Positions 9,179 to 53,403 of a stretch of DNA of 64,000 nt are shown here, in pieces. This DNA is from Planctomycetaceae bacterium (GTDB taxonomy: Bacteria > Planctomycetota > PLA2), in contig WYBS01000069.1 in the NCBI GenBank assembly GCA_011525755.1, forward strand, positions 5,196-69,195. Direction: 5' to 3'. Each line of letters begins with the position of its first letter. Within the stretch, counting starts at the first letter, position 1. Position numbers and translations under genes: made by a program. Under the pieces are notes generated by a model, which worked only from the letters and a program-made list of their open reading frames with translations, was not told the origin of the DNA and searched no databases.

Positions 9179-9321
9179 AGAGGCCGGGCCGGCGTGTCGC
9201 CGGGACCGGTGCGTTGCCGGCCGCGGGCCGGTCGAGAAAGGACGGGTCCGGCATCGCCCGGATCCGAAGGCTGCCGGCCGGCGCAAGCCGGGCGGCGAGG
9301 GACGCGACCCGAAGACGGACC

Positions 9322-9597: not shown

Positions 9598-9650
9598 GGC
9601 GTCGCGGCAGCGCCTCCGATGCCGGGGGCTTCTCGCGGGCCTGAGCGGCC

Positions 9651-11761: not shown

Positions 11762-12153
11762 GATCCTTCTCCTTGCGAGCCGTGCATTGTAGCGGAGCGA
11801 CCCGGGGGGCGAAAACGCCCGACAAGCGCACCGAACGCCGCGCCGGCCGTATCGGCCAGGAGGTCGGCCCACGAGCGGGTCCGGCCGGGGACGTGGCCCT
11901 GGACCCACTCGTCCAGCATACCGCAAACGAGGCCGGCAAGGGCGCCGAGGAAGACGGCGCGTCGCCGCCCGGACGCGGCCGCGGAGCGCGCGACGAGGGC
12001 GCCGAGGGTGCCGTAGACGGCCGCGTGGAGGATCTTGTCCGCGCCGGGCAGGTCGAGGAGCGGGCTCTCGGGGAGCGCGTCGCCGGGACGGGAGCCCAGG
12101 AAGAGCAGCAGGCCCGCCCATGCGAGGGCGAGGATCGCGTAGGCCTTGCGCAC
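11758..12153 (-). CDS. VanZ-like family membrane protein
   Basis: 131 aa. MRKAYAILALAWAGLLLFLGS...DKILHAAVYGTLGALV...DEWVQGHVPGRTRSWADLLADTAGAAFGALV matches the VanZ pattern (DK..H...Y..L...DE..Q...PGR......D...N..G). Confidence 0.75.
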   Translation of the reverse strand: MRKAYAILALAWAGLLLFLGSRPGDALPESPLLDLPGADKILHAAVYGTLGALVARSAAASGRRRAVFLGALAGLVCGMLDEWVQGHVPGRTRSWADLLADTAGAAFGALVGRFRPPGRSATMHGSQGEGS

Positions 12154-12293
12154 GGCGCACGATTATTCCCGCGCCGCGTCGATCCCGGAATGGAACAGCG
12201 AAGTTGCGACCGGCCGTGAATCAGGCGGCGGCCGCGAGCCGAAGAGGGAAGCGCTGGCCGGGAAGGCGGGTAAGGAGACCCGGCTGGCGCGAA

Positions 12294-13235: not shown

Positions 13236-13525
13236 CGGAGCTCCTCCACGAAGATCTTGCCGTCGCCGATCCGGCCCGTGCGCGCGGCGTTCACCGCCGC
13301 CGCGATCGCCGCCTCGACGCCGTCATCCTCGACCGCGCACTCGATCCGCACCTTGGGCAGGAACGTCACGCGCGTCCCCTCGTCGCGGTAGAGATCCAGA
13401 TGCCCTTTCTGCCGGCCGTAGCCGCGCGCCTCGGCGAGCGTCAGGTTCGTGGCGCCCGCGCCGAGGAGCGCCCGCACGACCGCATCGACCTTGAAGGGCT
13501 TCACGACCACCGTCAGTTTACGCAC
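13232..13525 (-). CDS. P-II (GlnB/GlnK-like) signal-transduction protein, short variant
   Basis: 97 aa. KPFKVDAVVRAL, GYGRQKGH, FLPKVRIE and TGRIGDGKIFV align residue-for-residue with E. coli GlnB as I recall it. Position 51 is Thr rather than Tyr, and the last ~15 residues are absent. Confidence 0.85.
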   Translation of the reverse strand: MRKLTVVVKPFKVDAVVRALLGAGATNLTLAEARGYGRQKGHLDLYRDEGTRVTFLPKVRIECAVEDDGVEAAIAAAVNAARTGRIGDGKIFVEELR

Positions 13526-29398: not shown

Positions 29399-30907
29399 CT
29401 ACGCCTTCAGGACCACGAGCGTCACATCGTCCTCCTGCGTGCGGCCGCCGCGGAACCGCGTGAGCGCGGCGAGCGTCGCGTCCTCAATCTCGCGCGGGGG
29501 CCGGTCGGCGTTCGCGCGGACGATCTCGCGGAGCGCGTCCTTGCCGAAGCGGTTGCCGTCGCGGTCGCGCGTCTCCCAGATGCCGTCCGTTCCGATGAGG
29601 ATCACCTGCCCGTGTCGCCACCCCTCCCGCGCGTGCTCGTGGTACTCCCAGTCGGGACGCACGCCGAGGGGGATGTCGCGGCCCCCGAGCTCCTCGAAGG
29701 AGTCCGTCGCCGGGTCGTAGAGGATCGCGGGCTCATGGCCCGCGGAGACCCAGCGGAGCCTAAGGTCGCCCGTATCGATCACCACGGCGATCAGCGTCAC
29801 GAACCGGTCGCTGAAGCGGTCCGCGACGATGCTTCGGTTGGCCTCCCCGATCGCCGCCGCGAGCGAGTCGCCCGGGCGGATGCGCGAGCGCAGGATCGCC
29901 CGCGTCGTCGCCATCAGGAGCGCCGCGGCGACGCCGTGGCCCGCGACGTCCGCGACCACGATCCCGAGCCGCGGTTCGCCGTTCGACGAGAGGTCGAGGA
30001 GGTCGTAGTAGTCGCCGCCGATCTCGTCGCAGTAGGCGCTCGTTGCGGCGATGTCGAAGCTGGCCACGCTCGGCCACGTGGTCGGCAGCAGGTTCCGCTG
30101 GACCTCCTTCGCGAGGTGGACGGAGTCGCGGAGCCGCAGGTGGTCGCGCAGTTTCGGCAGCATGGAGTCGAGCGCGTCGGCCAGCCGGCCGAACTCGTCG
30201 GCCCTCGACGCGTCGACCCGCGTCTCGAGGTCGCCCGCGGCGATGCGGTTCACCGCGGCAACCGTGGTCTCGAGCGGTCGCGTCACCCGGCGCGAGAGCG
30301 GGAGCGACAGCCCGAGCGCGAGGAGGAGTGCCGCGCCGATGGCGCCGAGGCCGCTGCCGAGGAGGAGCCGCATGCGGCCCAGGAGGTCGGTCGCGGCGAT
30401 GTCCACGACGAGCGTGCCCACGACATGGCCGTTTGCATCGCGGATCGGCGCGTATCCGCTGATCCACGTGCCGAACTCGTCGGACTTCAGGTCCTCGACG
30501 CCGGTGGTGCCGACGGGGATGCGGTCGTTCTCCGCGAGGTCGCCGCGCGAGCCGAGGGCCCGTCCCGACTCGTCGTCCACCACGGTCCGCAGGCCCCCTC
30601 CGGGCCGGTGGACGGCGGTGTAGACGAAAAAGGCGTGGACGTCGCGCCGCCGGTTCGCGTCGCGGACCGCCGCGAGCGCACGCTTCAGCGGCACCTCGGC
30701 GTCCGGCGCAGCGTCGCCCCGCGCGAGCTTCGCCTGGAGGTCGGCGTCGACCAGCGCGGAGGCCGTGGCGGCGATCGACATCGCCTTGCTCTCGATCTCT
30801 CCGACGAGGTAGTGTCGGGCGAGGGCGTAGAGGATGCCGGTCGCCGTCCCGCTCACGCCGATGGCCAGCGCCATGAAGGCGAGGGCGAGCTTCCGGCGAT
30901 AGAGCAT
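29399..30907 (-). CDS. Cache-like sensor - HAMP - PP2C (SpoIIE-family) protein phosphatase
   Basis: 502 aa. Two TM segments flank a periplasmic sensor. HAMP region: RVTRPLETTVAAVNRIAAGDLETRV..DEFGRLADALDSM. PP2C motifs: GGDYYDL, VADVAGHGVAAALLM, LIGTDGIWE. Confidence 0.9.
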   Translation of the reverse strand: MLYRRKLALAFMALAIGVSGTATGILYALARHYLVGEIESKAMSIAATASALVDADLQAKLARGDAAPDAEVPLKRALAAVRDANRRRDVHAFFVYTAVHRPGGGLRTVVDDESGRALGSRGDLAENDRIPVGTTGVEDLKSDEFGTWISGYAPIRDANGHVVGTLVVDIAATDLLGRMRLLLGSGLGAIGAALLLALGLSLPLSRRVTRPLETTVAAVNRIAAGDLETRVDASRADEFGRLADALDSMLPKLRDHLRLRDSVHLAKEVQRNLLPTTWPSVASFDIAATSAYCDEIGGDYYDLLDLSSNGEPRLGIVVADVAGHGVAAALLMATTRAILRSRIRPGDSLAAAIGEANRSIVADRFSDRFVTLIAVVIDTGDLRLRWVSAGHEPAILYDPATDSFEELGGRDIPLGVRPDWEYHEHAREGWRHGQVILIGTDGIWETRDRDGNRFGKDALREIVRANADRPPREIEDATLAALTRFRGGRTQEDDVTLVVLKA

Positions 30908-31466: not shown

Positions 31467-32927
31467 CTACGGCGCCTGCTGCCGCGCGGCCAGGCGGCGC
31501 TTCTTCTCGCGCAGCTCGAGGATCTTCCCGTGGCGCTCCTTCTCCTTCTTGCCGTCCTCGGACTTGCGCCACTGCGCGAGCGCCGCCTGGAGCTCCGCGG
31601 CGCTCTGGTACCTGTCCTCCGGCTGCTTCTCCATGAGCTTGAGGCAGATCTCCACGAGCCCGTCCGGCACCATCTCGTCGAGGTCGTGCGGGTGGGGCGG
31701 CGGCTCCGTCATGTTCTTCTTGAGGATCTCGATCGCGCTCTTCCCGGTGAAGGGGCGGTGCCCGGTCAGCAGGTAGTACATGACGGCGCCGAGGCTGTAG
31801 AGGTCCGCACGGCCGTCGATCGCGCCCATCTTCCCGCGCGCGGCCTGCTCCGGCGAGAGGAACGCCGGCGTCCCCATGATGAGCCCCTCGGCCGTCTCCG
31901 CCGCGTCGTCCTGCTCCCGCTCGACCGTCGCGATCCCGAAATCGATGAGCTTGATCTCGCCGCTCCGGTCCATGAGCACGTTCTGCGGCTTGATGTCCCG
32001 GTGCCAGATGTTCTTGCCGTGCACGAGACGCAGGACGTCGGCGAGCTTGTCGATCACCTCCGCCACCTGCCAGAAGGTGAGCGTGTGCTTGAACCCGACC
32101 GCGAGGAGGTCCTCGCCGTCGACGAACTCCATCGCGATGTAGTGCATCCCGCCGTGCTTCGCGAGGTCGCACACCTTCACGATGTTCCTGTGGTTGAAGG
32201 CCGAGATCGCCCACGCCTCCTGCTTGAAGCGCGCGACGTTCTCCTCGTCCACCTTGTCGGTGTGGAGCACCTTGAGCGCGACGAGCTGCCCCTCGACCTT
32301 CCGGCTCCGCGCCTTGAAGACGACGCCCATGCCGCCCGCGGAGAGCCGCTTCAGGAGAACGTAGTCGCCGAAGACGACCTCCCGCTCGCCCCCCCCGAGC
32401 AGGCGGTCGAGCTTCTCCTGGTCGGCGAGGAGCCCGTCGAGCTGCGCCTCGCTCGCGATCTCGAGCGCGCCCTTCGCCGGCGCGATCGACGCGGCCGTCG
32501 TGGTCCCCGTCGTTCCGGAGGCCGCGCGCTCCGCCTCGAACGCGCGCCGCGCCTCGAGGCGCTTCTTCCGCGCCGCCTCCTCCTTCTCCTCCTTCTCCTT
32601 CTCCGCGCGGCTCTTGAGAACGACGGGCTTCGGGTCGAGGAACACGATCGTGCAGTCGCGGCCGACCGTGATCGTGTCCTTGTGCCGGAGCCGCGACACC
32701 ATCACGGGATGGCCGTTGAGCGCCGTCCCGTTCGTGGAGTCGAGATCCTTCACGCGCCAGTCGCCGTCCTCGTGGCGCCAGATCCGGAAATGGCGGCGCG
32801 ACGCCTCCTTGGCCGGGAGGATGACGTCGCACCCCTCGCGGCCGGCCTCGAGGGCGTCCTTCGCGATCTCGTGCTCGACGGTCTTGCCACCGGCGGTGAT
32901 CCGGAGCTTCGGCATGGCTCCGATCAT
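31467..32927 (-). CDS. FHA-domain Ser/Thr protein kinase
   Basis: 486 aa. N-terminal FHA (GREGCDVILPAKEASRRHFRIWRHEDGDWRVKDLDSTNGTALNG). Kinase motifs: GGMGVVFKA, ALKVL, HRDIKPQNVL, DFGIA, SPEQ. Alternative ATG start at 32915. Confidence 0.9.
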   Translation of the reverse strand: MIGAMPKLRITAGGKTVEHEIAKDALEAGREGCDVILPAKEASRRHFRIWRHEDGDWRVKDLDSTNGTALNGHPVMVSRLRHKDTITVGRDCTIVFLDPKPVVLKSRAEKEKEEKEEAARKKRLEARRAFEAERAASGTTGTTTAASIAPAKGALEIASEAQLDGLLADQEKLDRLLGGGEREVVFGDYVLLKRLSAGGMGVVFKARSRKVEGQLVALKVLHTDKVDEENVARFKQEAWAISAFNHRNIVKVCDLAKHGGMHYIAMEFVDGEDLLAVGFKHTLTFWQVAEVIDKLADVLRLVHGKNIWHRDIKPQNVLMDRSGEIKLIDFGIATVEREQDDAAETAEGLIMGTPAFLSPEQAARGKMGAIDGRADLYSLGAVMYYLLTGHRPFTGKSAIEILKKNMTEPPPHPHDLDEMVPDGLVEICLKLMEKQPEDRYQSAAELQAALAQWRKSEDGKKEKERHGKILELREKKRRLAARQQAP

Positions 32928-32970: not shown

Positions 32971-34947
32971 GTGTCGCGCCGTGAGCCGCTGCTCGTGGCC
33001 CTCCTGCTCCTCGGGTGCATCGCCGGGGTCGTCTTCGTCTTCACGTCGCTCAAGGCCCCCGGACGCGCCTGGGAAAAGAAGGAGCTGCCCCGCGAGGCCC
33101 CTCTCCCCCGCGCCCCCTCACCCCGCCCCGCGGAAGCGCCCGCGGCGGAGGCGCCCGTCGCGACGGAAGGGGAGGAGCGCCCGCTCGCTCCCGCGCCCGT
33201 CACGAGGGAGGAGGAGGGGGGATCCGCGGGGGAGGAGGAGGCGCCGCCCGCCGAGGAAGGGGGCGAGCCGAAGGAGATCGAGGGCGCCGCCGACCTCGTC
33301 CTCGAGCTGATGCCGCCAGGGGACCCGGTGGACCGCACGGTGCACGTGCGGGTGATGGACACGGCGGGCAACGCGGTCGCGCGCGCGCTCGTCGTCGTGC
33401 GCGAGGGGACGGAGATCCTCTTCCGCGCGCGGACCGACGGGGCGGGGCTCGCCGAGTTCCCGCCGTATGCGGAGGAGGAGGGGCCGTTCCGCATCGACGC
33501 GATCGCGCACGGCTTCGTCGCGGGGCAGGCGCCCGCGGTCGCGGCGGGCGCGGACGTGGACCTCGTCCTCGAGTACCGGCCGATCGTCGAGGGCAAGGTG
33601 CGCGGCGCGGAGGGGCGCAGGGGCGTCGTGCGGCTCTTCCAGGGCGCCGAGGAGCGGAGCATGCCGCTCGCGCCCGACGGCACGTTCGTCTTCGAGGATC
33701 TCGACCCGGGCGAGACGGCCGTCCAGGCGGAGGTGGACGTCTACGGGGTCGACACCGAGGCCTTCTTCCTCGAGGGCGGGACGCGGCGCTACGTGTCGCT
33801 GCGGATCAAGGGCAACAACGCCGCGACGATCCAGGGCAGCGTCGAGGGCTGGCCGGGCTCGGGCAGCATGACGATCAACGGGCTTCCCGTGGCCGTGCGG
33901 CCTTCTGGGAACTACACGTTCGGCCACGCGGTCATCGGGCTCAACGAGGCGCTGATCGACGCGCCGGGGAAGGCGCTCCTGCGCGAGCGCTTCACGGTCA
34001 AGACGCTCCAGATGTCCTACTACCCGTTCAGCCTGAAGCGCGAGGGGAAGATCCGCGGCCGCGCGCGGAGGATGTTCTCGAACGAGCCGGTGCCGGGCGC
34101 CGAGGTGCGCGTCGGCTTCGACCGCGGCGACCCGGTGAACGACCGCGTGCCGCTCTTCCCGATCGACCGCGTGCCGGTCGTGACGACCGACCGCGACGGG
34201 CGCTTCGAGATCGAGCGCCTCGACAAGCGGCTCACCTACCTCGTGTCGATCGTCGCGCCGGGGTACGGCCAGTTCTTCGGCTCCGCGCTTCCGGACGGCG
34301 GCCACCTGACGGTGAAGATGCCCGAGGGCCCGTTCGTCTTCGGCCGCCTCCGCGGCATCGGCGGGACCCCCGCGGAGGCGATCGTGACCGCGACGCCGCT
34401 CGAGGGGCTGCCGATCGGGCGGCTGTTCAACAAGCCGGGGTGGAACTACGCGCGGGCCGAGCGCGACCGGGAGGGCTTCTACGGGCTCTCAGGGCTCCTG
34501 CCCGGGCCCTATCTGGTCCGCGTGGACGCGCCGGGCTTCGGCTCGGTCGAGACCGTGATGGACCTGCACGAGGGCGAGCGGATCCGGCTCGACCTGAGGG
34601 TGCGCCGCGGGATCGAGGTCGACCGGGACGAGGAGGCGCTCCTGCGGAGGCTGCCGCCGGTCGAGTACGAGGGCGAGGGGGCTCCGGGGGACAGCGCGAC
34701 GCTCCTGAAGATCGACGCGCGGCGTCCGGGGCACGAGCAGCAGTTCCCGGGCCTCCGCGTGCGCTTCTTCGACGGCGAGAAGGAGTTCGCGCCGCCGATG
34801 GAGTTCAGCGACCCGCAGATCGACCTCCTGGGCCTGCCGGAGGCGACCTACCGCGCGATCCTCACGCATCCGGCGCTCGCGCGCCCGATCGTGCGCGACA
34901 ACATCGTCGTCCGCCGCGGCTCCCCGATCGAAGTGGAGATGCGGTAG
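32971..34947 (+). CDS. Membrane-anchored protein with repeated carboxypeptidase-regulatory-like (CarboxypepD_reg) beta-sandwich domains
   Basis: 658 aa, GTG start. N-terminal TM segment (LLVALLLLGCIAGVVFVF), an acidic/Pro linker, then repeated motifs of the type G.V.D..G.P...A.V......TD..G.F....L..G.Y. Confidence 0.8.
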   Translation: MSRREPLLVALLLLGCIAGVVFVFTSLKAPGRAWEKKELPREAPLPRAPSPRPAEAPAAEAPVATEGEERPLAPAPVTREEEGGSAGEEEAPPAEEGGEPKEIEGAADLVLELMPPGDPVDRTVHVRVMDTAGNAVARALVVVREGTEILFRARTDGAGLAEFPPYAEEEGPFRIDAIAHGFVAGQAPAVAAGADVDLVLEYRPIVEGKVRGAEGRRGVVRLFQGAEERSMPLAPDGTFVFEDLDPGETAVQAEVDVYGVDTEAFFLEGGTRRYVSLRIKGNNAATIQGSVEGWPGSGSMTINGLPVAVRPSGNYTFGHAVIGLNEALIDAPGKALLRERFTVKTLQMSYYPFSLKREGKIRGRARRMFSNEPVPGAEVRVGFDRGDPVNDRVPLFPIDRVPVVTTDRDGRFEIERLDKRLTYLVSIVAPGYGQFFGSALPDGGHLTVKMPEGPFVFGRLRGIGGTPAEAIVTATPLEGLPIGRLFNKPGWNYARAERDREGFYGLSGLLPGPYLVRVDAPGFGSVETVMDLHEGERIRLDLRVRRGIEVDRDEEALLRRLPPVEYEGEGAPGDSATLLKIDARRPGHEQQFPGLRVRFFDGEKEFAPPMEFSDPQIDLLGLPEATYRAILTHPALARPIVRDNIVVRRGSPIEVEMR

Positions 34948-34953
34948 GGGGGC

Positions 34954-35088
34954 ATGTCGCGATCCCCGAAGCACGTCCTGGTGTCCCGGAGGGAGATGTC
35001 GGAGATCCTCTCCGACCCTTCGCTCGTGAAGAGGCTTCGGCGCGGCGCCCGGGAGGCCAAGGCGCGCGCAGGGCGCCTCGCGCGTTGA
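34954..35088 (+). CDS. Possible 44-aa small ORF with a Phd/YefM-antitoxin-like C-terminal motif (orphan/remnant)
   Basis: Not in the track because it is under 60 aa. Translated by hand: MSRSPKHVLVSRREMSEILSDPSLVKRLRRGAREAKARAGRLAR. The E(I)LSDP..(V/M)..L......(I/A)KAGR pattern is typical of Phd/YefM antitoxin C-terminal halves. No toxin gene is adjacent. Confidence 0.25.
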   Translation: MSRSPKHVLVSRREMSEILSDPSLVKRLRRGAREAKARAGRLAR

Positions 35089-35130
35089 GACGGCGGCCGC
35101 CGCTCACCACGCGCGGCGCGTCAAGGAGTC

Positions 35131-36087
35131 CTAGTCCCCCGAGCGGTTGAGGACGAGCGAGAACTCGCCCTCGTGCGGCTGGTCGGGGGCCTGGATGTTG
35201 AGGATCAGCTGGAGCGTCCCCGACGCGGGCATCACGCCGTTGAAGTTGGTGCCGATCCGGAAGATCGTGCCCTTCGGGCCCACGCGCGCGGCGAGCGTCC
35301 CGACCATCATCCCGTTCATCATGCCCATGTTCTGGTTGCCGTCGGGCGTGAATGCCTGGCCCCAGTTCGGGAAGAAGATCGTGCCCGTCGCCTGGATCTT
35401 CAGCCGCTCCCCCTTCTCCACCTTGATCTTCGTGTCGAGCCATCCGTTCGGCCAGCAGTTCGTGCCGGCGACCGTGATCTTCCGCGCGTCGTCCGGCGCG
35501 GCGGAGCGGATGCCCTCCACGTCGCCGCGCTTCACGACGAGCGGCCCGAGCTCCTTCACGTTCACCTTGAACGCGTCGAGCTGGATCTGCCCGAGCACGC
35601 TGAAGCGGACCGTATCGACCTGGTCGTCGTCCGTCATGACGACATCGTCGTCCGGATCGAGCTCCTTGAGGATCTCCGCGGCGATGCGCTTCACCTCCGG
35701 ATCGCCGTGCGTCTTCGCGGCCGCGCGCAGCGACGGCACCGCGAACACGCCCTCCTGCACGATCGACGCGCGCGCGTGGTTGCGCCGCTCCGGCTCGGCC
35801 GCGCCGAGGTTCCTCAGCGCCGCCTCCACCTTCGCGAGCCGCTCCGGCTGCGCGCGGCGGCCGAACCGCACGCGCCTTATCTCGACCACCGGCACCGTGA
35901 GATCGCCGAACGCGGTCGCGACCTTCCAGCTCGTGGGCTCGAGCTTCCCGACGAGCACGCTCCCGCTGCGAAGCTCGACGGCGTGGGGCGGGGGCTCGTC
36001 GGGGGCGGGGGCGGGCGCCTCCTCGTCCTGCGCGCGGACCGCGCCGAGGAGGATCAGGGGGGCGAGGGGGGCAAGGAACCGTCTCAT
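35131..36087 (-). CDS. Secreted HEAT-like / PA-IL (LecA)-like lectin-domain protein
   Basis: Start MRRFLAPLAPLILLGAVRAQDE (signal peptide); the ATG overlaps the upstream stop (ATGA). The C-terminal ~120 aa (WLDTKIKVEKGERLKIQATGTIFF...PDGN...GTLAARVG...FRIGTNF..V.PASGTLQLILN) resembles the PA-IL/LecA-like fold pattern. Confidence 0.7.
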   Translation of the reverse strand: MRRFLAPLAPLILLGAVRAQDEEAPAPAPDEPPPHAVELRSGSVLVGKLEPTSWKVATAFGDLTVPVVEIRRVRFGRRAQPERLAKVEAALRNLGAAEPERRNHARASIVQEGVFAVPSLRAAAKTHGDPEVKRIAAEILKELDPDDDVVMTDDDQVDTVRFSVLGQIQLDAFKVNVKELGPLVVKRGDVEGIRSAAPDDARKITVAGTNCWPNGWLDTKIKVEKGERLKIQATGTIFFPNWGQAFTPDGNQNMGMMNGMMVGTLAARVGPKGTIFRIGTNFNGVMPASGTLQLILNIQAPDQPHEGEFSLVLNRSGD

Positions 36088-37277
36088 CGATTCTCCTTCG
36101 GCTCCTCGGGCCTCCCGTCTGGACCGGGCAGCGGCACGGGGATCTTCTCCGTGGCCTCCTGCGCCCGGGGCCGCTTGTCCAGCGCGACCTCGATCTCGAT
36201 CTCCTTGCCCTCGCGGGACACCTTGAGCTTCACCGTGTCGTCCGCCCGCCTGCGGCCGATCTCGAACCGGAGCCCGAACGCGTGCGGGACCGGGGCGCCG
36301 TCCACCGCGAGGACCAGGTCGCCCTTCCGGAGCCCCGCCTTTGCGGCGGCCGTCTCCGGGACGATGTCGGTGATCAGCGCGCCCGGCCCGGGCCGGTCCT
36401 GGTCCGTCGTGACGCCGAGGAACGCGGCCTCGAGCTCGACACCTTCCTTCCCGAGCCGGCGGATGAGCGCCTGCGGGTCGGGGATCGGGGCCACGAAGCC
36501 GATGCCCGAGTCGTACCAGTTCGGGTTCGCGGCCTCGCCCCCCGCGCCGAGGGGCACGATGATGCCGTAGACGCGCCCCTCGAGGTCCACGAGCGGGCCG
36601 CCGTAGTTCGAGGGCGACGTCGCGGCGTCCGTCTGGAGCGCGTTGCCCTCGATCCGGTTCTTCGCGGAGATGATCCCGTACTTCACGTCGGCGAGCCGGT
36701 CGAGCGCGCGGCCGACCGCGAAGGCCCAGGCGCCCACGGCCACGTCCTGCGGGTCGAGGAAGGTCGCGGGCGGGAGTCCCCCGCGCTCGATCTTCAGCAG
36801 CGCGAGCCCGGCCGCGCGGTCGATGCCGAGAAGCTTCGCGGCCGTCGTTTTCCCGTCCGCCGTCGTCACGGTGACGACGGTCGGGTTGCTCTCGAAGTTC
36901 CACGCGGAGGTCACGACGTAGCCGTCCGCGGAGAGGATCACGCCGGTCGTCGGCCCCTCCGCCTTCTGGAACCCGGGCAGCGCGAGCATCTTCTTGAACT
37001 CGTCGCCGAAGCGAGGCGTGCGACCCTCGGGCGCCGGTTCCTCCTCCTCCTTCGGCTCGCCCTCCTTGGGCGCGTCCTTCTCGTCGCGCGGCCGCGCGGG
37101 CACGGTCATCTTCTCGCCGGGGCTCCCGGGGAGGTCCGCGGGGCGCACGCCGCCGACGGTCTCGATCGTCACGACCGAGGCGTCGACGGCGCGGAGCGCG
37201 TTCTCGATCGCGACCTCGAGGGCGAGGATCTCGTCCGGGTTCTCGGGGGCGAGGAGGAGCAGGAGCGCGAGGATCAC
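36084..37277 (-). CDS. HtrA-like trypsin-fold + PDZ protein, catalytic triad lost (pseudo-protease 2)
   Basis: GTG start overlaps the upstream stop (GTGA). Aligned by eye to the intact paralog: His site TSAWNF (W for H), Asp site AAGLALLKI (G for D), Ser site SNYGGPL (Y for S). PDZ-like C-terminus (GALITDIVPETAAAKAGLRKGDLVLAVDG). Confidence 0.8.
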   Translation of the reverse strand: MILALLLLLAPENPDEILALEVAIENALRAVDASVVTIETVGGVRPADLPGSPGEKMTVPARPRDEKDAPKEGEPKEEEEPAPEGRTPRFGDEFKKMLALPGFQKAEGPTTGVILSADGYVVTSAWNFESNPTVVTVTTADGKTTAAKLLGIDRAAGLALLKIERGGLPPATFLDPQDVAVGAWAFAVGRALDRLADVKYGIISAKNRIEGNALQTDAATSPSNYGGPLVDLEGRVYGIIVPLGAGGEAANPNWYDSGIGFVAPIPDPQALIRRLGKEGVELEAAFLGVTTDQDRPGPGALITDIVPETAAAKAGLRKGDLVLAVDGAPVPHAFGLRFEIGRRRADDTVKLKVSREGKEIEIEVALDKRPRAQEATEKIPVPLPGPDGRPEEPKENR

Positions 37278-38311
37278 GGCTTTGCCTCCAGTTTCACGGC
37301 GATCACCTTCACCTCGGCCTTGCGCTTGATCGTCAGCTGCGCGGTCTCGCCCGCGCGGTACTTGGCCATCATCTTGTCGAACGTCTTCCAGTTCTTCACC
37401 GCGGTCCGGTCGATCTTCAGCACGAGGTCGTCGGGAAGGACCCCGGCCCGGGCCGCCGGCGAACCCGGCGCGACGCGGTCGACGTAGGCGGGGGTCGCGA
37501 GGTTGATCCCGGCCCGGAGGACCGTGATCCCGTGATAGCCGGGTTCCCCGGGCCCCTCCGCATCCTCTTCCGTGTCGCCCGACCCGGTGTAGATCCTGCC
37601 CGCGTCCGGCCGCGCGACCGTGTCCTCGAGGAAGGGCTTCAGGTCGTCGATCGGGATCGCGTAGTGGAGCTGGACGTTCGTCTCCCTGCTCTCGACGAGC
37701 GTGCCGCTGATGCCGATCACCTCGCCTTCGAGGTTCACGAGCGGCCCGCCGTACACGCCGGGGTTGTTCATCGCGTCGTGGAGGATCACGTCGCCCGGGT
37801 AGTCGAAGTCGTCGGAGAGCCCGGCGCGCATCGAGGGCCTCGTGATCGCGCTCACGACGCCGAGGTTCACCGCGCACGGCTCGCGCCCCTCGGCGACGCG
37901 GTAGGCGTTGCCGACGAGGAGCACGAACTGGCCCCTTCGCACCTTGTCCGACTCGCCGAGCTTCGCCGCGGGGAACTTCTCGCCCGGGTCGCCCATGAGC
38001 CGCAGCAGCACCATCTTCGACTTCCGGTCGTAGCGGACGATCTCCGCCATGCAGCGTCGGCCGTCGTCGAGGTGGCACTTGATCTGCGGCGCCTCGTCGA
38101 GCGTGACGGAGCCGCGCGTGAGGACGAGGCCGCTCTCGTGGACGATCACGCCGGTCATGTAGCCGAAGACGCCGCGGAAGCCCTTGACGCCGAACACCTT
38201 GACGACGGAGGGCTGGACGGCCTTGACCGCGGCGTCGATGCGCGGGTTGCGCGCCTCGGGGGCCGCGACCGCCAGCGTGGCGAGGAGGAGGAGGGGCGCC
38301 GTGGACCTCAT
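37274..38311 (-). CDS. HtrA-like trypsin-fold + PDZ protein, catalytic triad lost (pseudo-protease 1)
   Basis: Signal peptide MRSTAPLLLLATLAVAAPEA. His site LTRGSVT (S for H), Asp site SKMVLLRL (K for D), Ser site PGVYGGPL (Y for S). PDZ-like C-terminus (VDRVAPGSPAARAGVLPDDLVLKIDR). Confidence 0.8.
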   Translation of the reverse strand: MRSTAPLLLLATLAVAAPEARNPRIDAAVKAVQPSVVKVFGVKGFRGVFGYMTGVIVHESGLVLTRGSVTLDEAPQIKCHLDDGRRCMAEIVRYDRKSKMVLLRLMGDPGEKFPAAKLGESDKVRRGQFVLLVGNAYRVAEGREPCAVNLGVVSAITRPSMRAGLSDDFDYPGDVILHDAMNNPGVYGGPLVNLEGEVIGISGTLVESRETNVQLHYAIPIDDLKPFLEDTVARPDAGRIYTGSGDTEEDAEGPGEPGYHGITVLRAGINLATPAYVDRVAPGSPAARAGVLPDDLVLKIDRTAVKNWKTFDKMMAKYRAGETAQLTIKRKAEVKVIAVKLEAKP

Positions 38312-39927
38312 CCCTTCTGCACCCCCGTGTAGGCGATCGTCTGGAGGAGCTTCTCCTTCTCGCGGTCCCAGATCGTCACCTTGTACGGCCGCAGGAGGCC
38401 GTTCGCCTCGCGCCAGTCGTCGCAGACGAGCGAGATCCAGCGCGCCCAGTTCCGGGAGTAGACGTCGAGGCGCCGCAGGAGCCCCGTGTCGAGGTGGACG
38501 AAGTAGACGCGCTCGACGCCTTCCTTCGTCTTCGCCTCGATGCGGTCGACCGTGTCGTGGCCGACGAGCGCGCCGCCCGTGAAGTCGACCGTCGCGAAAC
38601 GCATCCGGCCGTCCTCGCCGAGGAGATCGTTCCACGCGGCCACGCGCTCGAGCATGTCCTTCGCGAGGTCGGGGTCGATCTCCCCTTCCCCGTCCCGGCC
38701 GCCCCCGGCGGTCGCCTCGCGGACGCGGCCGCCCGCCGCCACGGTCACGCGCCCCTCGGCGTAGGCCTCCTTCAGCGCGACAGGCTCGCGCCCCTCGACC
38801 GTGAGCGTCCCCTCGCGCGTCTCCGCGCCGATCGGCTGCATCGTCGCGCGGGCAGCGGCGAAGGTCCGGTCGATCTCCATGTCGAGGTAGGTGCGGGGCG
38901 GCTTCTTCATCGCCTTCCCCCGCTCGTCGACGAGCGGGATCCCGTCGAGCGTGAGCCGGTACTCGCTCTCGGTCCACTTGCCGTCCTCGAACCGCGCCGC
39001 CTTGAGCGAGATGCGACGCCCCTTGGGCTCTACCGCGATCAGGCGGGAGAACTGGTTCACCTCGGTGATCCGCTCGCCCATGAACTCCACGAGCGCGTCC
39101 CCGATCTGGATCCCCGCGTCGTGCGCGCAGCCGGGAGCGAGGAGCTTGTCGAAGGTGACGCGCACGCCGCCCGGCCACTCGGGGTCGTCGATCGAGCGCA
39201 CCGTCGCGTTGAGCGTGCCGTGCTCGACGATCTGGCCCGCGCGCATGTCCGGCAGGCAGCGCTTGATCTGGTTCGCGCTGATCGCGTAGCCGACGCCGAT
39301 GTTCACGCGGCCGCGCTCGCGGAGCGACACGCGCCCGTTGATCCCCACGACCTCGCCCCGGAAGTTGAAGAGCGGGCCGCCGCTGTTGCCGGGGTTGATC
39401 GATGCGTCGGTCTGGATGCAGTCGGGGTAGAGGAGCGTGCCGCGCATCGAGCCCGGCTGGTAGCGGTTGATGCCGCTCACGACGCCGAGCGTGATCGTCG
39501 GGCTGAAGTCGGTCGCGAGGAGGAAGGGGTTCCCCATCGCGTAGACCCAGTCCCCCTGGCGCAGCGCGTCGGAGTCGCCGAGCGGGGCGAAGGCCCACTC
39601 CCGCGTCTCCTTGAGGCGCAGCAGGGAGAGGTCGCCCGACGGGTCCACGCCGAGGACGACCGCCTCGTGGATGCGGGCGTCGTTGAGCCCGATCCGCATC
39701 TCGTTCTCGAGCTCGGTCACGTGGAAGTTCGAGAGGACGAGGCCGTCCTTCGTGATGATGACCCCCGAGCCACCGCCCGGCCCGCGGAAGACGGCGCACA
39801 CCGCCGGCGCGAGCCTCGCCGCGAGCTCGATGCGCCCCCTCTCGAGCGCCCGCGCCGTGGCGAGCGCGTCGTCGGCGGCGTCGAGGCCTGCCGCGAGGAA
39901 CGGTAGGAGGAGAAGCACCCTTCGCAT
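38308..39927 (-). CDS. HtrA/DegP-family serine protease with PDZ and an extra C-terminal domain (triad intact)
   Basis: 539 aa with a signal peptide. SNFHV (His), GDLSLLRL (Asp) and NPGNSGGPL (Ser) are all present. A PDZ-like region follows, then ~200 aa of unknown C-terminal domain. Confidence 0.9.
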   Translation of the reverse strand: MRRVLLLLPFLAAGLDAADDALATARALERGRIELAARLAPAVCAVFRGPGGGSGVIITKDGLVLSNFHVTELENEMRIGLNDARIHEAVVLGVDPSGDLSLLRLKETREWAFAPLGDSDALRQGDWVYAMGNPFLLATDFSPTITLGVVSGINRYQPGSMRGTLLYPDCIQTDASINPGNSGGPLFNFRGEVVGINGRVSLRERGRVNIGVGYAISANQIKRCLPDMRAGQIVEHGTLNATVRSIDDPEWPGGVRVTFDKLLAPGCAHDAGIQIGDALVEFMGERITEVNQFSRLIAVEPKGRRISLKAARFEDGKWTESEYRLTLDGIPLVDERGKAMKKPPRTYLDMEIDRTFAAARATMQPIGAETREGTLTVEGREPVALKEAYAEGRVTVAAGGRVREATAGGGRDGEGEIDPDLAKDMLERVAAWNDLLGEDGRMRFATVDFTGGALVGHDTVDRIEAKTKEGVERVYFVHLDTGLLRRLDVYSRNWARWISLVCDDWREANGLLRPYKVTIWDREKEKLLQTIAYTGVQKG

Positions 39928-39977
39928 GTCGCGCCCTCATGGGGCCGGCCCGCCGTCGGGGCTCGGCCGGAACCCCG

Positions 39978-41177
39978 CTATTTTCCACCCGGCGGGCTTG
40001 CCATGGCGCTGAAAACGCGCGCCTCGGCCCAGTCGCAGAAGTCGGACACGTAGGAATCGCCCGGGGCGGTCTCGAGGACCAGCCGGTCGACCCCCTTCAC
40101 GTCCAGACGCACCGCCTCGGGGGGCTCCCCCTTGCGGCGCCGGATCTCGGCGAGCACCTTGCCGTCGCCCGTGACCCGGAAGACCGCGTCCCCCTCGGCC
40201 CCCGCGGCGTCGTCGATCCCGCAGCGGGCGTAGAAGGTCTCCCAACGCCCCCCGAGCACGTACTCGAGCCTCGTGTAGGCGAGCGTGCCGAGGCCGCGCT
40301 CGTAGGCCCGCGCCCCGAGCCGGATGGGGCCGCCGAGCGCCATGCCGTCCCGCCTGTAGGACGTCGGCTGGCCGAGGAGCGTCGTCTGCCTGACGTCGAT
40401 CGGCTCGAAGTCCGAGAGGTGGGCCATGTGGTCGCCCAGGAATTCGAGCCGGTCCACGTGGTCCCGCACGACCTTGATCCCGCCACCCTCGACCGTCGTC
40501 TCGGTGATCCGCTCGAGCGGCAGCGTGACGCGCTCGCCCCCGGCGATGTGGACGCGGACGCGCACGCCCGGGGGCACCGTGCGCTCGCGGTCGGGCGTCC
40601 GGACGAAGCCGTACACGCGCGCGAACTCGATCTCCCGCCGCTGGTCCTCGACGCGCGCCACGAGCGCCGCCTCGCCGAGCTCGAGGACGCGCGCCGGCAC
40701 GGGGAACGGCTTCGTGTCGCGCTGGATGACGATCGAGTCGCGCCCCTTCTCGAGCTCCCGGTCGAAGACCTCGCCGTAGGAGGCCTGGAGCGCGCCGAGG
40801 AGGCGGCCGAAGCGGACGGCACGCACGGCGTCGAGGGGCACGGCGAGGCCGAGGACGACCGGGCTGTCGAGCCGGACCTCCTCGCCGGCGCCGGTCACCG
40901 CGCCGCGGAGGCGGTCGCCGCCGTGCAGGTGGAGGTTCATGGGGCCGTCGGCGCCGGGCGCCCGCTTCGCGGCGACCGCGGTCGCGAGGACGAGTTTCGT
41001 GACCGGGATCCGCTGCGGCTCGCCGTCCTTCACGCGGACGACGGCGGTATCGGACTCGACGGAGACGAGCGCCCCGTCGATCGCGCTGCCGTCGACGAGG
41101 ACGACCTTCCCGTCCGCGGAGGCGATCGCCGCGGCGAGGAGGACCGCCGCAGCCGCCCGGAAGGCCCCGGAGCCCAT
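39978..41177 (-). CDS. Secreted protein with C-terminal NPCBM (NEW2) carbohydrate-binding-like module
   Basis: Signal peptide MGSGAFRAAAAVLLAAAIASADG. C-terminus GARAYERGLGTLAYTRLEYVLGGRWETFYARCGIDDAAGAEGDAVFRVTGDGKVL...LVLETAPGDSYVSDFCDWAEARV follows the NPCBM pattern (G..Y.KGLG.H..S...Y.L.....F...VGIDD.....G.V.F.V..DG..L....DH.DWA.A). Confidence 0.8.
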   Translation of the reverse strand: MGSGAFRAAAAVLLAAAIASADGKVVLVDGSAIDGALVSVESDTAVVRVKDGEPQRIPVTKLVLATAVAAKRAPGADGPMNLHLHGGDRLRGAVTGAGEEVRLDSPVVLGLAVPLDAVRAVRFGRLLGALQASYGEVFDRELEKGRDSIVIQRDTKPFPVPARVLELGEAALVARVEDQRREIEFARVYGFVRTPDRERTVPPGVRVRVHIAGGERVTLPLERITETTVEGGGIKVVRDHVDRLEFLGDHMAHLSDFEPIDVRQTTLLGQPTSYRRDGMALGGPIRLGARAYERGLGTLAYTRLEYVLGGRWETFYARCGIDDAAGAEGDAVFRVTGDGKVLAEIRRRKGEPPEAVRLDVKGVDRLVLETAPGDSYVSDFCDWAEARVFSAMASPPGGK

Positions 41178-42235
41178 CACCGGTCGCCGGCGGGCTCCGT
41201 GACGCGCTTCCCCTCGGCGAGCGCCTTGTTGTACTGCTCGAGGAGCTCGCGGTACCGATCGGGGAACTGCTCCTTCAGGGCCTGGAGGACCGCCTCGCGC
41301 TCCTTGTCCCGCATCTCGCCCCACGCCTCGCCCGCCTTCTTCTTGGGGTTCGGGCGAAGGTCGCCGACGCGGCTCGCGCCGGGCGCGACGCTCGAGTTGT
41401 TCGCGGGGCCCGAGGGCTGCTGGTTGCCGCGCGGCTGGCCTCCGCCCCCGCCGCCCCCCTTGCCCTGGCCCTCCTGCTGCTCGGCCTTCTTGATGAGCTC
41501 CTCGATGATGTCGACGATCTCCTTCTGCTTCTGCTGCGTCGGCTCCCCGGTGTCGCCGCCCTCGATCTTCTTCGCGACGTGGTTCATGCGGCCGGCGAGG
41601 TCGTAGAGCGGGCTCTCCCACTCCTGCACGAGCTCGTTCTTGAGCTGCTCCATCGCCTGCTTGTAGCGCTCGGGGGCGTCGGGGTAGTCCTTCAGGAACG
41701 CGTTCGCGGCGGAGATCGCCTTCTCCTTCTCGCGCTCCTGGCCGAGGCAGACGACGAGGTAGAAGGCCGCGTCGACGTCGCAGCCCGCGAAGCGGAACTC
41801 GTTGAGCACCTGCGTGAACGCCTGCCCCGCCTCCTCGTACCGCTCGCGGTTCATCTGCGCGAGTGCGTAGCGGAAGGTCGAGTAGCCGCGCACGTACTCG
41901 TCGGCGCTCTTCATGAGCGCCTCGAAGCGCTCGACCGCGGCGCCGTACCGTTCGCTCGTGAGGAGCGCGTCGGCGCGCTGGTAGCCGGGGTTCATGAGGA
42001 GGAGCGCCTGGTGGATGCAGTCGAACTCGCCGCCGAGGAGGCCGCTCTCGCGCAGCTTCAGGACGTCCTTCTTCATCGCCTCGGCGAGCGTCGCGTCGGC
42101 CTCGATCCTCGAGAAGAAGCGGTCGATCTTTCTCTGCCGGAGCTTCTCGACGAGCTCCGAGCCCGCGGGGGCGTCGGCGCGCGCCGTGGCGAGGAGGAGG
42201 AGGGGCGCGGGGAGGAGGAGGAGGATTCTTCTCAC
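41177..42235 (-). CDS. Secreted TPR/helical protein with Gly7 low-complexity tract (BatC/BatE-like position)
   Basis: 352 aa. Signal peptide MRRILLLLPAPLLLLATARADA, TPR-like helices, then QEGQGKGGGGGGGQPRGNQQP. The C-terminal motif WGEMRDKEREAVLQALKEQFPDRYRELLEQYNKALAE recurs, as I recall, in MoxR/vWA-cluster proteins of Planctomycetes-like genomes. Confidence 0.75.
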   Translation of the reverse strand: MRRILLLLPAPLLLLATARADAPAGSELVEKLRQRKIDRFFSRIEADATLAEAMKKDVLKLRESGLLGGEFDCIHQALLLMNPGYQRADALLTSERYGAAVERFEALMKSADEYVRGYSTFRYALAQMNRERYEEAGQAFTQVLNEFRFAGCDVDAAFYLVVCLGQEREKEKAISAANAFLKDYPDAPERYKQAMEQLKNELVQEWESPLYDLAGRMNHVAKKIEGGDTGEPTQQKQKEIVDIIEELIKKAEQQEGQGKGGGGGGGQPRGNQQPSGPANNSSVAPGASRVGDLRPNPKKKAGEAWGEMRDKEREAVLQALKEQFPDRYRELLEQYNKALAEGKRVTEPAGDR

Positions 42236-42237
42236 GG

Positions 42238-44403
42238 CTACTCGCCCTCCTGGCGGTTGAGCTTGTCGGCCATCGTGCGGGTGAGCGTGCCCACGCCATC
42301 CTGCTTCTCCGCGATCCTAAAGCGCTCGTCCTCCTCCTTCTTGACCATGCGGTCGAAGGTCGAGGTGCGCTTGTTCACGCGCAGCTGGAGCGACTTGAGC
42401 ATCTTCAGCTCGGCCGAGGTGGGCAGGAGGTTCTCCTCCTGGTCCCCTTCGCTGCCGTCGCCGTTCCCCTCGCCGCCGCCCTGCTTGCGATTGAGCTCCT
42501 CCTTGATGACCTCGATGAGCTCGTCGAGCGTCTGGATGATGTCCTGCTGTACGGCCTGCGTGTAGTCGCCCGCGTCGAGCTTGCGGAGCCTCGCGGCGAG
42601 GCCGTCGAGGTCGCGCTTCATGTCGCGGATCACGTCGGGGATGACGACCGTCGTCCCCTCCTCGGAGAGGATCTCGAGGACCTTCTCGGCCTCCGCGGAG
42701 AGCTCCGCCTCGCCGTCGCCGAGCTGCTGCGCCTTGTCCACGACCGCGCGGGGCGGCTTCTCCGCGTCCTTCATGCGCAGGTTCAGGGAGAGCGTCTCCT
42801 TGAAGATCCTCGACTGCTGGTCGCGCATCCGGGTGAAGCGGCGCTCGAGCGCCTCGAGGAGCATCAGCTGCTCCTCCTCGCGGAGCTGGCGGAGGATCTC
42901 CTCGAGCTCCTCCTTCGCCTTCTCGAGGCGCTCGATCGCCTCCTTCTGGTCCTTGTTGGCACGGTTGGCCGACTTGCCGCGGAGGTTCCGCTCCGCGCGC
43001 TGCATCGCCCCCTTGGCCCCCTCCACCCCCTGCTGTCCCGGCGTCGAGCCTTCCTGGCCCTGCTGGCCGGCGTCCTGCTTCATCTTCTTGAGGAGCTCGC
43101 CGGTATCCTCCTCGGTCTTCTTCTGCTCATCCGCCATCTTGTCGTAGTCAGGCATCTGGATGAGCTTCTTCAGCTCCTCCTCGAACTTCTCGAGCTTCTT
43201 GTAGGCGTTCTCGAGCTCCTTTTTCGCGTCCTCCTCGTGGGGGACCGCGTCGGGGCGGTTGCCCTTGTCGAGCTTGCCCTCCGCCTTGCCCATGTCGCCC
43301 TGGGCCTTCCGGACCTCGCCCGCGCCGGGGTCGGTGCCGGGCGCGCCGCGCTGCAGCTTCTCGAGCTCCTCCGCGAGGCGGCCCGCGTCCTCGCGGATCC
43401 GCTGCTGGTCCTTTTCGAGCTTTCTCTCGCCGAAGTCCTCGAGCCGCTTGGCGAGGCGCTTCAGCGCGTCCTGCGCCTCCTTCAGGTCCTCCTCGGCCTG
43501 CTCCTGCGGCTGCTCGTATCCCTCGCCGCCGCGCATCCCCTGGCCCGCCTGCCCCATGCCCTCGGCGGCGCGGCCGACGGCGCCCGCCGCCTGCTCCGCG
43601 GGGTTCCGGCGCCCTTCCGCGTCCTGCTTCATGGCGTCGGGGAGGCCCTGGGCGAGCTTGCCGATCGCCTCGGCCAGCTCCTTCGCCTTCGCGGCGAGCG
43701 CGTCCTGCTTGTCGGGATCCTTCCTGCCGCGGAGGTCGGCCTGCTCCTTCTGGAGCTCCGCGAGCCGCTTCTGGAGCTCGGCGACGGCGGGGTCGCCGGG
43801 AGGGGCCTTCGTGCCGTCGATGAGCGCCTGCTCGCGCGCGATCAGGTCGCCGAGCTTCGCCTTCGCGGCCGCGGCGCGCTGGAGCGCTTTCTCGGGGTCC
43901 GCGAACTTCTCGGACTTCAGGTGCTGGTCGCGCTCCTGCTCGAGGATCCGGTTGAGCGTCGCGAGCTGGTCCTCCTTCCGCTTGATCTCGTCCTGGAGGT
44001 CCTTCCGCTCGGCGTCGCGGTCGAGCAGGATGTCGAGGAGGCGGGCGAGGGCGGACTCGAGCTGCTTCTGCTTCTCGAAGGCCTCGTTGAAGTACTCCGA
44101 GCGGAGCAGCGTCTCGATCTCGGAGACCTTCTCGAGGTTCCGGTCGTCCTTGCTGCGCTGCCAGGCCATCTTGAGGCGCGCCGCCTGCTCCGGGCTGTTC
44201 TTCGCGAGCTGCTTCATGATCCGCTGCATCGTCTCCTCGATGCGCTTCAGGCGGTCGCCGACCTCCTTCTGCTTGTCGGCGATCTCCCCCGCCTTGGGCG
44301 CGGGGGCCGGCGCGGGCTCCTGCGAGAGGGCGAGGGAGGAGAGGAGCGCGCAGGCAACGAGGGCTCGCTTCACGGCATGTCTCCGGTTCGACGGGCTCCG
44401 CAC
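42238..44403 (-). CDS. Secreted, highly charged coiled-coil protein (721 aa)
   Basis: Signal peptide ALVACALLSSLALSQE. Near-continuous K/E/Q/R/L heptad-like sequence. Its stop is 2 nt from the next gene's start. Confidence 0.8.
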   Translation of the reverse strand: MRSPSNRRHAVKRALVACALLSSLALSQEPAPAPAPKAGEIADKQKEVGDRLKRIEETMQRIMKQLAKNSPEQAARLKMAWQRSKDDRNLEKVSEIETLLRSEYFNEAFEKQKQLESALARLLDILLDRDAERKDLQDEIKRKEDQLATLNRILEQERDQHLKSEKFADPEKALQRAAAAKAKLGDLIAREQALIDGTKAPPGDPAVAELQKRLAELQKEQADLRGRKDPDKQDALAAKAKELAEAIGKLAQGLPDAMKQDAEGRRNPAEQAAGAVGRAAEGMGQAGQGMRGGEGYEQPQEQAEEDLKEAQDALKRLAKRLEDFGERKLEKDQQRIREDAGRLAEELEKLQRGAPGTDPGAGEVRKAQGDMGKAEGKLDKGNRPDAVPHEEDAKKELENAYKKLEKFEEELKKLIQMPDYDKMADEQKKTEEDTGELLKKMKQDAGQQGQEGSTPGQQGVEGAKGAMQRAERNLRGKSANRANKDQKEAIERLEKAKEELEEILRQLREEEQLMLLEALERRFTRMRDQQSRIFKETLSLNLRMKDAEKPPRAVVDKAQQLGDGEAELSAEAEKVLEILSEEGTTVVIPDVIRDMKRDLDGLAARLRKLDAGDYTQAVQQDIIQTLDELIEVIKEELNRKQGGGEGNGDGSEGDQEENLLPTSAELKMLKSLQLRVNKRTSTFDRMVKKEEDERFRIAEKQDGVGTLTRTMADKLNRQEGE

Positions 44404-51449: not shown

Positions 51450-52368
51450 CGCCGGCGCGTGCTCCCGCGCACGACCCGGGCGCGCGCCGCGAGGAATCCC
51501 GCGAGCGACTTGTCGAGCCGGTCGCCGGTCGAGAGCAGCATGTAGTCGATACGCATCGAGGCGCACATGCGCCGCACCTGCTCGAGGAACTCGCGCAGGA
51601 TCTCGAGGTAGCCGTCGCGCAGCGAGCGCGGCTCCGCGATCAGGTCGGGCAGCTGCTCGAGCCCGACGAACCGCGTGTTGTCCTCGAAGGGGAAGGTGAG
51701 CTCGGTCTCGTCGAGGACGTGGAAGAGCACCACCTCGTGCCGCTTGTGGCGGAGGTGCTTCAGCCCGTTTTCGATCGTCTCGAGCGGCGCGAAGAGGTCG
51801 GAGAAGATCGCGATGAGCGAGCGGCGCCCGGCGGCGTCGGCGAAGTCGCGAAGCGGCGCCGCGAAGTCGGTCTTCCGCTGCGGCTTCATCGGCTCGACCA
51901 TCGAGAGGATGTTCTGCAGGCTGTGCCAGTTGCTCGACACCGGCACGGCGCCCTGGAGGCGGTCGTCGAAGAGGCGCAGGCCGACCGCGTCGCGCTGCTT
52001 CAGCAGCAGGAACGCGATCGCCGCCGCCGCCGTCGCGCCGTACTCGAACTTGGAGAGCGGCTGCGTGCCGAACCGCATCGACTCGCTGATGTCGAGCAGC
52101 AGGTGGCAGCGGAGGTTCGTCTCCTCCTCGTACTGCTTGATGTAGTAGCGGTCGGCCCGGCCCCAGAGCTTCCAGTCGATGTGGCGGATGTCGTCGCCGG
52201 GCGCATACTCCCGGTGCTCCGCGAACTCGACGCTGTACCCCTTCCGCGGCGACTTGTGGAGGCCGGAGACGTACCCCTCCACGACCTGCCGCGCGCGCAG
52301 GTCGAGGCGCGAGATCTCCGCCAGCACCGCCGGATCGAGGAACCGGCTCTGCCCCCCCGGGTGCGCCA

Positions 52369-52369
<1 letters not shown>
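51446..52369 (-). CDS. DUF58 domain protein (MoxR partner)
   Basis: Start MAHPGGQSRFLDPAVLAEI overlaps the MoxR stop. G.H.S...G.S.EF.EHREY.PGDD.R.IDW...AR......K.Y.EE is the DUF58 signature. Confidence 0.9.

Positions 52370-53403
<1,034 letters not shown>

Follow-up and report, generated by a model that had tools for sequence, protein, structure and literature searches.

Two families of catalytically dead HtrA homologues encoded beside an intact HtrA protease in a Bat-like operon of Planctomycetota

Introduction

HtrA proteases are textbook homo-oligomers, and to our knowledge there are only few natural cases of mixed or dead-subunit HtrA proteins, namely MamE/MamO, DEG7 and Deg5/Deg8. Deg5 and Deg8 both keep their catalytic triads. 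This work concerns a 64,000-nucleotide stretch of DNA from a Planctomycetaceae bacterium (GenBank assembly GCA_011525755.1, contig WYBS01000069.1, positions 5,196 to 69,195 of the forward strand), which will be referred to, at its full length, as the window. It contains three adjacent HtrA-like genes (the trio): A codes for a protein with an intact catalytic triad, B and C for two homologues from which the triad was lost. The trio lies at the end of an operon resembling the Bat operons. As far as we know, the function of the Bat proteins is still undefined.

Among the systems with a dead HtrA component, MamO is required for MamE-dependent proteolysis, and duplication of HtrA followed by loss of the triad has occurred repeatedly (PMC4794232). 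DEG7, whose orthologues were found in fungi, plants and algae, goes back to an internal duplication within a single gene; its degenerate protease domain mediates trimerisation (PMC3194040). The hetero-complex of Deg5 and Deg8, in 2016 the only known Deg hetero-oligomer, has a 1:1 composition and consists of stacked homotrimers (PMC4877387). Engineered HtrA2 heterotrimers point to crosstalk between PDZ and protease domains in trans (bioRxiv 10.1101/2021.10.04.462974).

No description of a planctomycete HtrA trio was found in literature searches. A first-pass annotation of the window, made by eye, had interpreted B and C as maintained pseudo-enzymes. Here we describe the three protein families, their conservation and their genomic context, and compare the trio with the systems listed above.

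Results

Two of the three HtrA homologues lack the catalytic triad

In public annotation A, B and C are labelled alike as 'S1C family serine protease'. The positions of the three open reading frames given in the first-pass annotation were confirmed (Table 1); all three lie on the minus strand. Protease and PDZ domains were recognised by Pfam. Trypsin_2 matched A, B and C with E-values of 2e-30, 5e-21 and 4e-25, respectively, and the best matches in the PDB were DegP, DegQ and DegS. PDZ_2 was detected in B (2e-12) and C (4.5e-15). The PDZ domain of A was borderline: it was recognised by PDZ_6 only, with 27.3 bits versus a cutoff of 27, and its fold aligns with PDZ1 of DegP. With the NCBIfam model TIGR02037 (Do family serine endopeptidase) scores of 209, 150 and 170 bits were obtained for A, B and C. 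Since these values are well under the cutoff of 416, the three proteins are divergent HtrA relatives.

The residues at the catalytic positions were mapped in three ways: by single-sequence HMMER alignments to DegP and DegQ structures, by alignment of family profiles with wild-type H. pylori HtrA (7xs0) and L. pneumophila DegQ (4ynn), and by a profile-profile alignment of B versus C. The mappings were concordant, except for the residue at the His position of C. The triad of A is intact and consists of His69 (39723-39721), Asp99 (39633-39631) and Ser182 (39384-39382). The residues at the His, Asp and Ser positions are Ser68, Lys99 and Tyr187 in B (Tyr codon 37753-37751), and Trp126, Gly157 and Tyr225 in C (Tyr codon 36605-36603). 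The intactness of the triad in A and its loss from B and C, both noticed by eye, were upheld by the HMMER and family-profile alignments. The by-eye alignment was right at all sites but one: it had put Asn at the His position of C, where the profile alignment puts Trp. MAFFT shifted this segment by one column; there was no His either way. Judged from these alignments, B and C are HtrA homologues and not S1C-family peptidases.

The intact protease

His69, Asp99 and Ser182 were invariant in an alignment of 32 A sequences, and the motif NPGNSGGP was found in all 117 relatives that cover the region (120 among the matches listed). A signal peptide is plausible by eye. The AF2 (AlphaFold2) model made from the family alignment had a predicted local distance difference test score (pLDDT) of 88 and a predicted template modelling score of 0.87, and its top Foldseek matches were DegP and DegS. 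In the PDZ carboxylate-binding loop of A the conserved Gly is replaced by Asn; this loop, HGTLNAT, was present in 75 of 81 relatives. Whereas the A loop is atypical, the corresponding loops of B (GYHGI) and C (FLGV, with a Gly that is invariant in the family) are canonical, so it is the live subunit that has the weakest PDZ domain and the dead ones that have the best.

Beyond the protease and PDZ domains A carries a C-terminal domain, in whose model (pLDDT >94) a helix precedes a beta sheet of many strands. The domain is kept in deep lineages (C-terminus of A in locus L012; positions 9445-9993 of L002). It had no match in Pfam or NCBIfam, and Foldseek with the whole A model, whose list was filled by HtrA matches, did not identify it. 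The L012 copy gave a sub-threshold match to DUF4292 (E 0.004), possibly a sign of a LolA/LolB-like fold.

Among the A-type proteins, P0317 (825 amino acids) contains an NPCBM domain and an A-type protease in one predicted polypeptide; either the NPCBM protein and A are truly fused here, or an indel in the 4-nucleotide overlap has produced a read-through. Another A-type protein, P0357, belongs to a cultured species, Stratiformator vulcanicus.

Replacement residues in the dead copies

Protein B consists of a signal peptide (plausible by eye), the dead protease domain and the PDZ domain. Its family comprised about 93 orthologue clusters with 57-96% identity, all from uncultured Planctomycetota. 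In these clusters the His position was occupied by Ser wherever the region was present, the Asp position by Lys (61), Arg (28) or His (1), and the Ser position, in the clade of the window, by Tyr (78) or Phe (15). Outside this clade Ala, Gly, Gln, Ser or Pro was found at the Ser position and Glu, Gln or Gly at the former Asp position. Lys/Arg and Tyr/Phe co-occurred in all four combinations, a pattern that excludes acid-base chemistry and is in keeping with a packing role. From the sequences, the two side chains could form a cation-pi pair that fills the cleft. An alternative Ser/Lys/Tyr triad was considered for B and rejected, because Lys/Arg and Tyr/Phe are freely interchangeable.

The B family also has several invariant or near-invariant His residues that are absent from the aligned positions of canonical HtrA proteins (H58, H80, H178, H216 and H260). 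H178 is located in LHDAMNNPG, where the canonical sequence is QTDA, and H216 in HYAIP, where it is GFAIP.

For C, 120 relatives were found among the matches listed, with identities down to 38%. The Tyr at the nucleophile position was invariant: N-Y-G-G was present in 116 of 116 motif-intact relatives, including those at 38-45% identity. The hydroxyl group was thus strictly retained and Phe never occurred. The Gly of the former oxyanion hole was mostly replaced by Ser, Thr, Ala or Val. Going by these patterns, the invariant Tyr could lie stacked against the Trp or Phe of the His position within the cleft. The protease and PDZ domains of C were modelled by AF2 (family alignment) with pLDDT >90, and the top Foldseek matches were DegP and DegQ. 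After its first strand and before the protease core, at the position of the LA loop in DegP, C contains a charged insert rich in Pro, Glu and Lys; it is predicted to be disordered (pLDDT 35-41).

In the clade of the window the N-terminus of C has only nine hydrophobic residues (MILALLLLLAPE); distant C orthologues have ordinary signal peptides. The notion that both dead copies carry signal peptides is plausible for B, but for the window's C it comes down to this short stretch. Likewise, the identical Ser-to-Tyr replacement to which the first-pass annotation drew attention is real in the window but was overstated, since Tyr is the hallmark of the C family only. The replacement motif of each family was preserved over about 90 clusters. 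A scan of genome contigs with patterns specific to the clade of the window gave 9 loci.

In Pirellulales-type lineages C orthologues of 644-694 amino acids were encountered (L012:10001-11935, L017:10799-12775 and L016:11219-13303). They have a second PDZ domain and a C-terminal extension of about 200 residues without Pfam match. By eye the extension resembles an alpha/beta-hydrolase, with a G-x-S-x-G-like motif that lacks the Ser (GHQDG, GEAGG); on this reading it would be a second dead enzyme domain.

Conservation, selection and natural fusions

The A-B-C order with uninterrupted frames was found in 10 close loci, over which protein identity was 63-92% for A, 61-94% for B and 53-90% for C. 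In comparisons of the window with the nearest loci, L003 and L004, the ratio of nonsynonymous to synonymous substitution rates (dN/dS, Nei-Gojobori) was 0.21 for A, 0.29-0.33 for B, 0.21-0.23 for C and 0.28-0.33 for D, the gene that follows C. The full ranges for the dead copies were 0.29-0.36 (B) and 0.17-0.23 (C), next to 0.21 for A. The dead copies are under purifying selection, with a degree of constraint close to that on the live A.

In the window A, B, C and D are chained by 4-nucleotide start/stop overlaps (ATGA between A and B, GTGA between B and C, ATGA between C and D), and such overlaps also occur in the relatives, which bears out the translational coupling proposed at first sight. 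The order NPCBM-A-B-C, where NPCBM stands for the secreted NPCBM-domain protein encoded upstream of A, was found with mostly 4-nucleotide overlaps in the close loci and in at least four deep planctomycete lineages (L002, L012 in a 5.96-Mb genome, L013/L014, L016 in a 5.9-Mb genome, L017 and L018). The proteins of the deep lineages are about 33% (B) and 40% (C) identical to those of the window. In these lineages A was always intact and C always had the Tyr; the nucleophile position of B was Ala, Gly or Gln. The NPCBM protein always preceded the A-type module (L001, L002, L012, L013, L015, L016, L017 and L018). The trio is spread over Pirellulales-type lineages, one Phycisphaerales metagenome-assembled genome and several uncultured lineages of Planctomycetota. 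Open frames in the orthologues, dN/dS values similar to that of A and deep synteny thus support the view that B and C are maintained pseudo-enzymes.

In L002, a 912-kb contig of the European Nucleotide Archive, the A-type gene (8211-9993) and the C-type gene (11456-13263) are each split into two open reading frames by apparent frameshifts. Because the active A is split as well, assembly indels are a likelier cause than selective decay.

Seventeen natural A::B fusions of 669-928 amino acids were identified among the A relatives listed (P0322-P0359). The best match of their N-terminal module is A (37-53% identity, with NPGNSGGPL), and that of the C-terminal module is B over its full length (30-37% identity). 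None of the fused B modules has the His, and their nucleophile position is Ala, Gln, Phe, Tyr, Ser or Pro. In L017 the genes for the NPCBM protein and the A::B fusion are followed by a C gene with NYGG; the arrangement is the same in L018, where the fusion gene and C overlap by 4 nucleotides. In the Phycisphaerales genome (L015) the fusion occupies the same place in the operon and there is no adjacent C.

In a neighbour-joining tree computed from 185 columns of the protease domain, A, B and C formed clades with bootstrap values of 100%, 94% and 100%, respectively. Since each clade includes the deep lineages, the triplication predates the splits between those lineages. The three proteins are anciently diverged HtrA paralogues, probably exported to the periplasm.

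Operon context

The minus-strand genes are contiguous, with overlaps or short gaps, from 53403 down to 35131 (Table 1). They form a Bat-like MoxR-DUF58-BatA/VWA operon of 12 genes, in which the trio occupies the 3' end. The gene set typical of such operons (MoxR AAA_3, DUF58, BatA_N/VWA, TPR) is present on one strand, the TPR matches being sub-cutoff. The G+C content of the window is 72%. A scan of positions 34800-40200 revealed no promoter or terminator, planctomycete promoters being outside the coverage of the tool.

Table 1. Genes and protein segments of the trio locus; positions refer to the window
Feature	Position	Strand	Length (amino acids)	Description
MoxR-type AAA+ ATPase	52369-53403	-	344	Pfam AAA_3 (E 9e-65), AAA_lid_2; first recognisable operon gene
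DUF58 protein	51446-52369	-	307	Pfam DUF58 (E 1e-43)
BatA N-terminal + VWA protein	49191-51449	-	752	Pfam BatA (E 1e-17), VWA_2
Large membrane protein	46726-49194	-	822	hydrophobic N-terminal stretch; no Pfam match
Membrane protein	44574-46724	-	716	gene at equivalent position in L015 has a weak DUF4175 match
Lys/Glu-rich protein	42238-44403	-	721	probably coiled-coil; no Pfam match
Secreted TPR-like protein	41177-42235	-	352	weak TPR_16/TPR_19, under curated cutoffs
NPCBM/NEW2-domain secreted protein	39978-41177	-	399	Pfam NPCBM (E 9e-26); directly upstream of A
A	38308-39927	-	539	active-type HtrA
A, C-terminal domain	38311-38895	-	~195	residues 345-539
B	37274-38311	-	345	HtrA pseudoprotease 1
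C	36084-37277	-	397	HtrA pseudoprotease 2; GTG start
C, insert	36966-37145	-	~60	residues 45-104
D	35131-36087	-	318	secreted, family unassigned; last operon gene, ATGA overlap with C
CarboxypepD_reg protein	32971-34947	+	658	downstream, convergent; CarboxypepD_reg repeats
FHA-domain Ser/Thr kinase	31467-32927	-		downstream
PP2C/SpoIIE-like protein	29399-30907	-		downstream; by eye a membrane protein resembling PP2C/SpoIIE phosphatase

A counterpart of similar size to the TPR-like protein is present in the relatives. D, for which a signal peptide is plausible by eye, had no match in Pfam or NCBIfam. Its family is large, with 1060 clusters (50% identity) at E<=1e-3, and still comprised 523 when the threshold was set to E<=1e-10. 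A D orthologue directly follows C in nine of the ten close loci; no match to D was found in the tenth, L010, despite 4.9 kb of sequence past C. At the place of D, L012 and L013, which belong to the deep lineages, encode a different protein. Farther downstream, the genes for the CarboxypepD_reg protein and the FHA kinase are syntenic in L001, whose B is 61% identical to that of the window.

Discussion

We propose, with a probability of roughly 60%, that A, B and C form one heteromeric HtrA unit in which A cuts, and the dead subunits contribute PDZ-based recognition and a scaffold. A would be the sole catalytic subunit, the active-site clefts of B and C being plugged by non-catalytic residues. 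The PDZ domains of B and C would recognise a substrate or an activator, and the two proteins would serve as an oligomerisation scaffold that activates or gates A in trans. The assembly could be made of mixed trimers or of stacked homotrimeric rings. Stacked A3/B3/C3 rings would be at least as likely as a 1:1:1 mixed trimer, one of the arrangements suggested in the first-pass annotation, because Deg5 and Deg8 stack as homotrimers and DEG7 trimerises via its dead domains. In the cell the trio may represent the periplasmic proteolysis or quality-control arm of the MoxR-DUF58-BatA/VWA envelope operon. The proposal draws indirect support from the strict coupling, the co-conservation of the three genes and the complementary quality of their PDZ domains. 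The A::B fusions are the strongest in-silico support for a physical association of active and dead modules. MamO, DEG7, Deg5/Deg8 and the engineered HtrA2 heterotrimers lend plausibility to such an assembly.

Several points weigh against this proposal. The fusions and the operon coupling are only indirect support for a complex. As the natural Deg5/Deg8 hetero-oligomer is built of homotrimers, a mixed trimer seems to have no natural precedent in the literature compared. The A::B gene of L015 has no neighbouring C-type gene, so C is not universally required in cis. The dN/dS values of every gene are inflated by the extreme G+C content at third codon positions (about 97%). Finally, B and C were joined in the tree at 81% bootstrap on long branches, yet the highest raw identity is between A and B (38%).

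In a bolder version of the proposal the three proteins would make up an obligately asymmetric particle, with live active sites of a single type. The PDZ domains of the two kinds of dead subunit would each respond to a different signal and turn on A in trans, the Tyr of C being a ligand-binding or gating residue, and the particle would be the effector of a phylum-wide Bat-like machine. This version is tentative, and we rather doubt it. If true, it would be the first natural three-paralogue HtrA hetero-complex found, and it would provide the unexplained Bat systems with a concrete output.

B and C might instead be stand-alone, protease-free chaperones or holdases, which form homo-oligomeric cages and which, though encoded in one operon with A and acting on the same substrates, stay separate from it. 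Catalytically dead DegP (e.g. S210A) keeps its chaperone activity, the HtrA fold and the PDZ domain are intact in both proteins and confidently modelled for C, the long insert of C is at the place of the LA loop of DegP, and the genome with no C next to A::B shows that the modules are separable. However, seventeen fusions join B covalently to A, the translational coupling is strict across lineages, and the degenerate PDZ loop of A beside the canonical loops of B and C suggests complementation. On balance we consider independent chaperones unlikely. Another possibility is that B, C or both are latency or inhibitor subunits, which cap the chamber of A until they are released, for instance by MoxR/VWA remodelling. 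In DegP the LA loop obstructs the opposing active site as long as the hexamer is at rest; a long, disordered and charged loop is found at this position in C, and a MoxR ATPase and VWA proteins are encoded in the same operon. The idea overlaps with the heteromeric unit proposed above, differing only in the sign of regulation, and it appears improbable to us.

The invariance of certain residues at the former active sites, Ser68 in B and Tyr225 in C (over 116 clusters, never Phe), could also mean that catalysis was re-invented, with a Ser68-Lys99 dyad plus Tyr187 in B or with Tyr as the nucleophile in C. This is very improbable: Lys is replaced by Arg in 28 and Tyr by Phe in 15 of the 93 B clusters, in all combinations, other lineages have Glu, Gln or Gly and Ala, Gly, Gln or Pro at these positions of B, and in C the oxyanion Gly is mostly replaced and there is no His nearby in the sequence. 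The loss of the triads, and the split A-type and C-type genes of L002, might finally be taken as signs of decaying pseudogenes. Against this stand the intact frames in the 10 close loci and in L012, L013, L016, L017 and L018, dN/dS values far under 1, and families that extend over about 90 clusters with 50-96% identity; decay of B and C is refuted by these conservation data, and we give it practically no credence.

That a pseudo-HtrA is partnered with an active HtrA is an already known principle. What is new is that the dead copies make up two separate families, in one of which the nucleophile position is always Tyr, that they occur across several deep lineages of Planctomycetota both as coupled genes and as fusions, and that the HtrA trio is placed in a MoxR/BatA operon. 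B and C represent two new pseudoenzyme families, from which annotation pipelines should drop the label 'peptidase'. The trio offers a natural system for trans-activation and for the division of labour between catalytic and PDZ-sensing subunits, and possibly a biochemical handle on the poorly understood MoxR-DUF58-BatA operons.

Comparison with known systems

The Bat operons of Bacteroides, Leptospira and Borrelia share the MoxR-DUF58-BatA/B(VWA)-TPR gene set with the operon of the window. We know of no described Bat operon with an NPCBM protein or HtrA paralogues. Deg5-Deg8 is a natural hetero-oligomer of HtrA paralogues, as is proposed for the trio, but it is encoded by nuclear genes and not by an operon and is built of homotrimers. 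DEG7 and Nma111 resemble the A::B fusions in having an active module followed by a dead one in one polypeptide. The window trio differs from DEG7 in that it consists of separate coupled genes and includes a third family, C; the one-polypeptide feature is found in the 17 relatives. MamE/MamO is like the trio in that an active HtrA is encoded beside an HtrA-derived pseudoprotease. MamO, however, is encoded in the magnetosome island and combines a TauE transporter domain with a di-His metal site on its surface; no Pfam match to TauE was found in A, B or C, and the proteins of the trio scored 30-40 bits with the NCBIfam MamO model, whose cutoff is 800. In contrast to the MamE/MamO pair, the trio is part of a MoxR/BatA operon of Planctomycetota, and it has two distinct dead families, both of which carry a PDZ domain.

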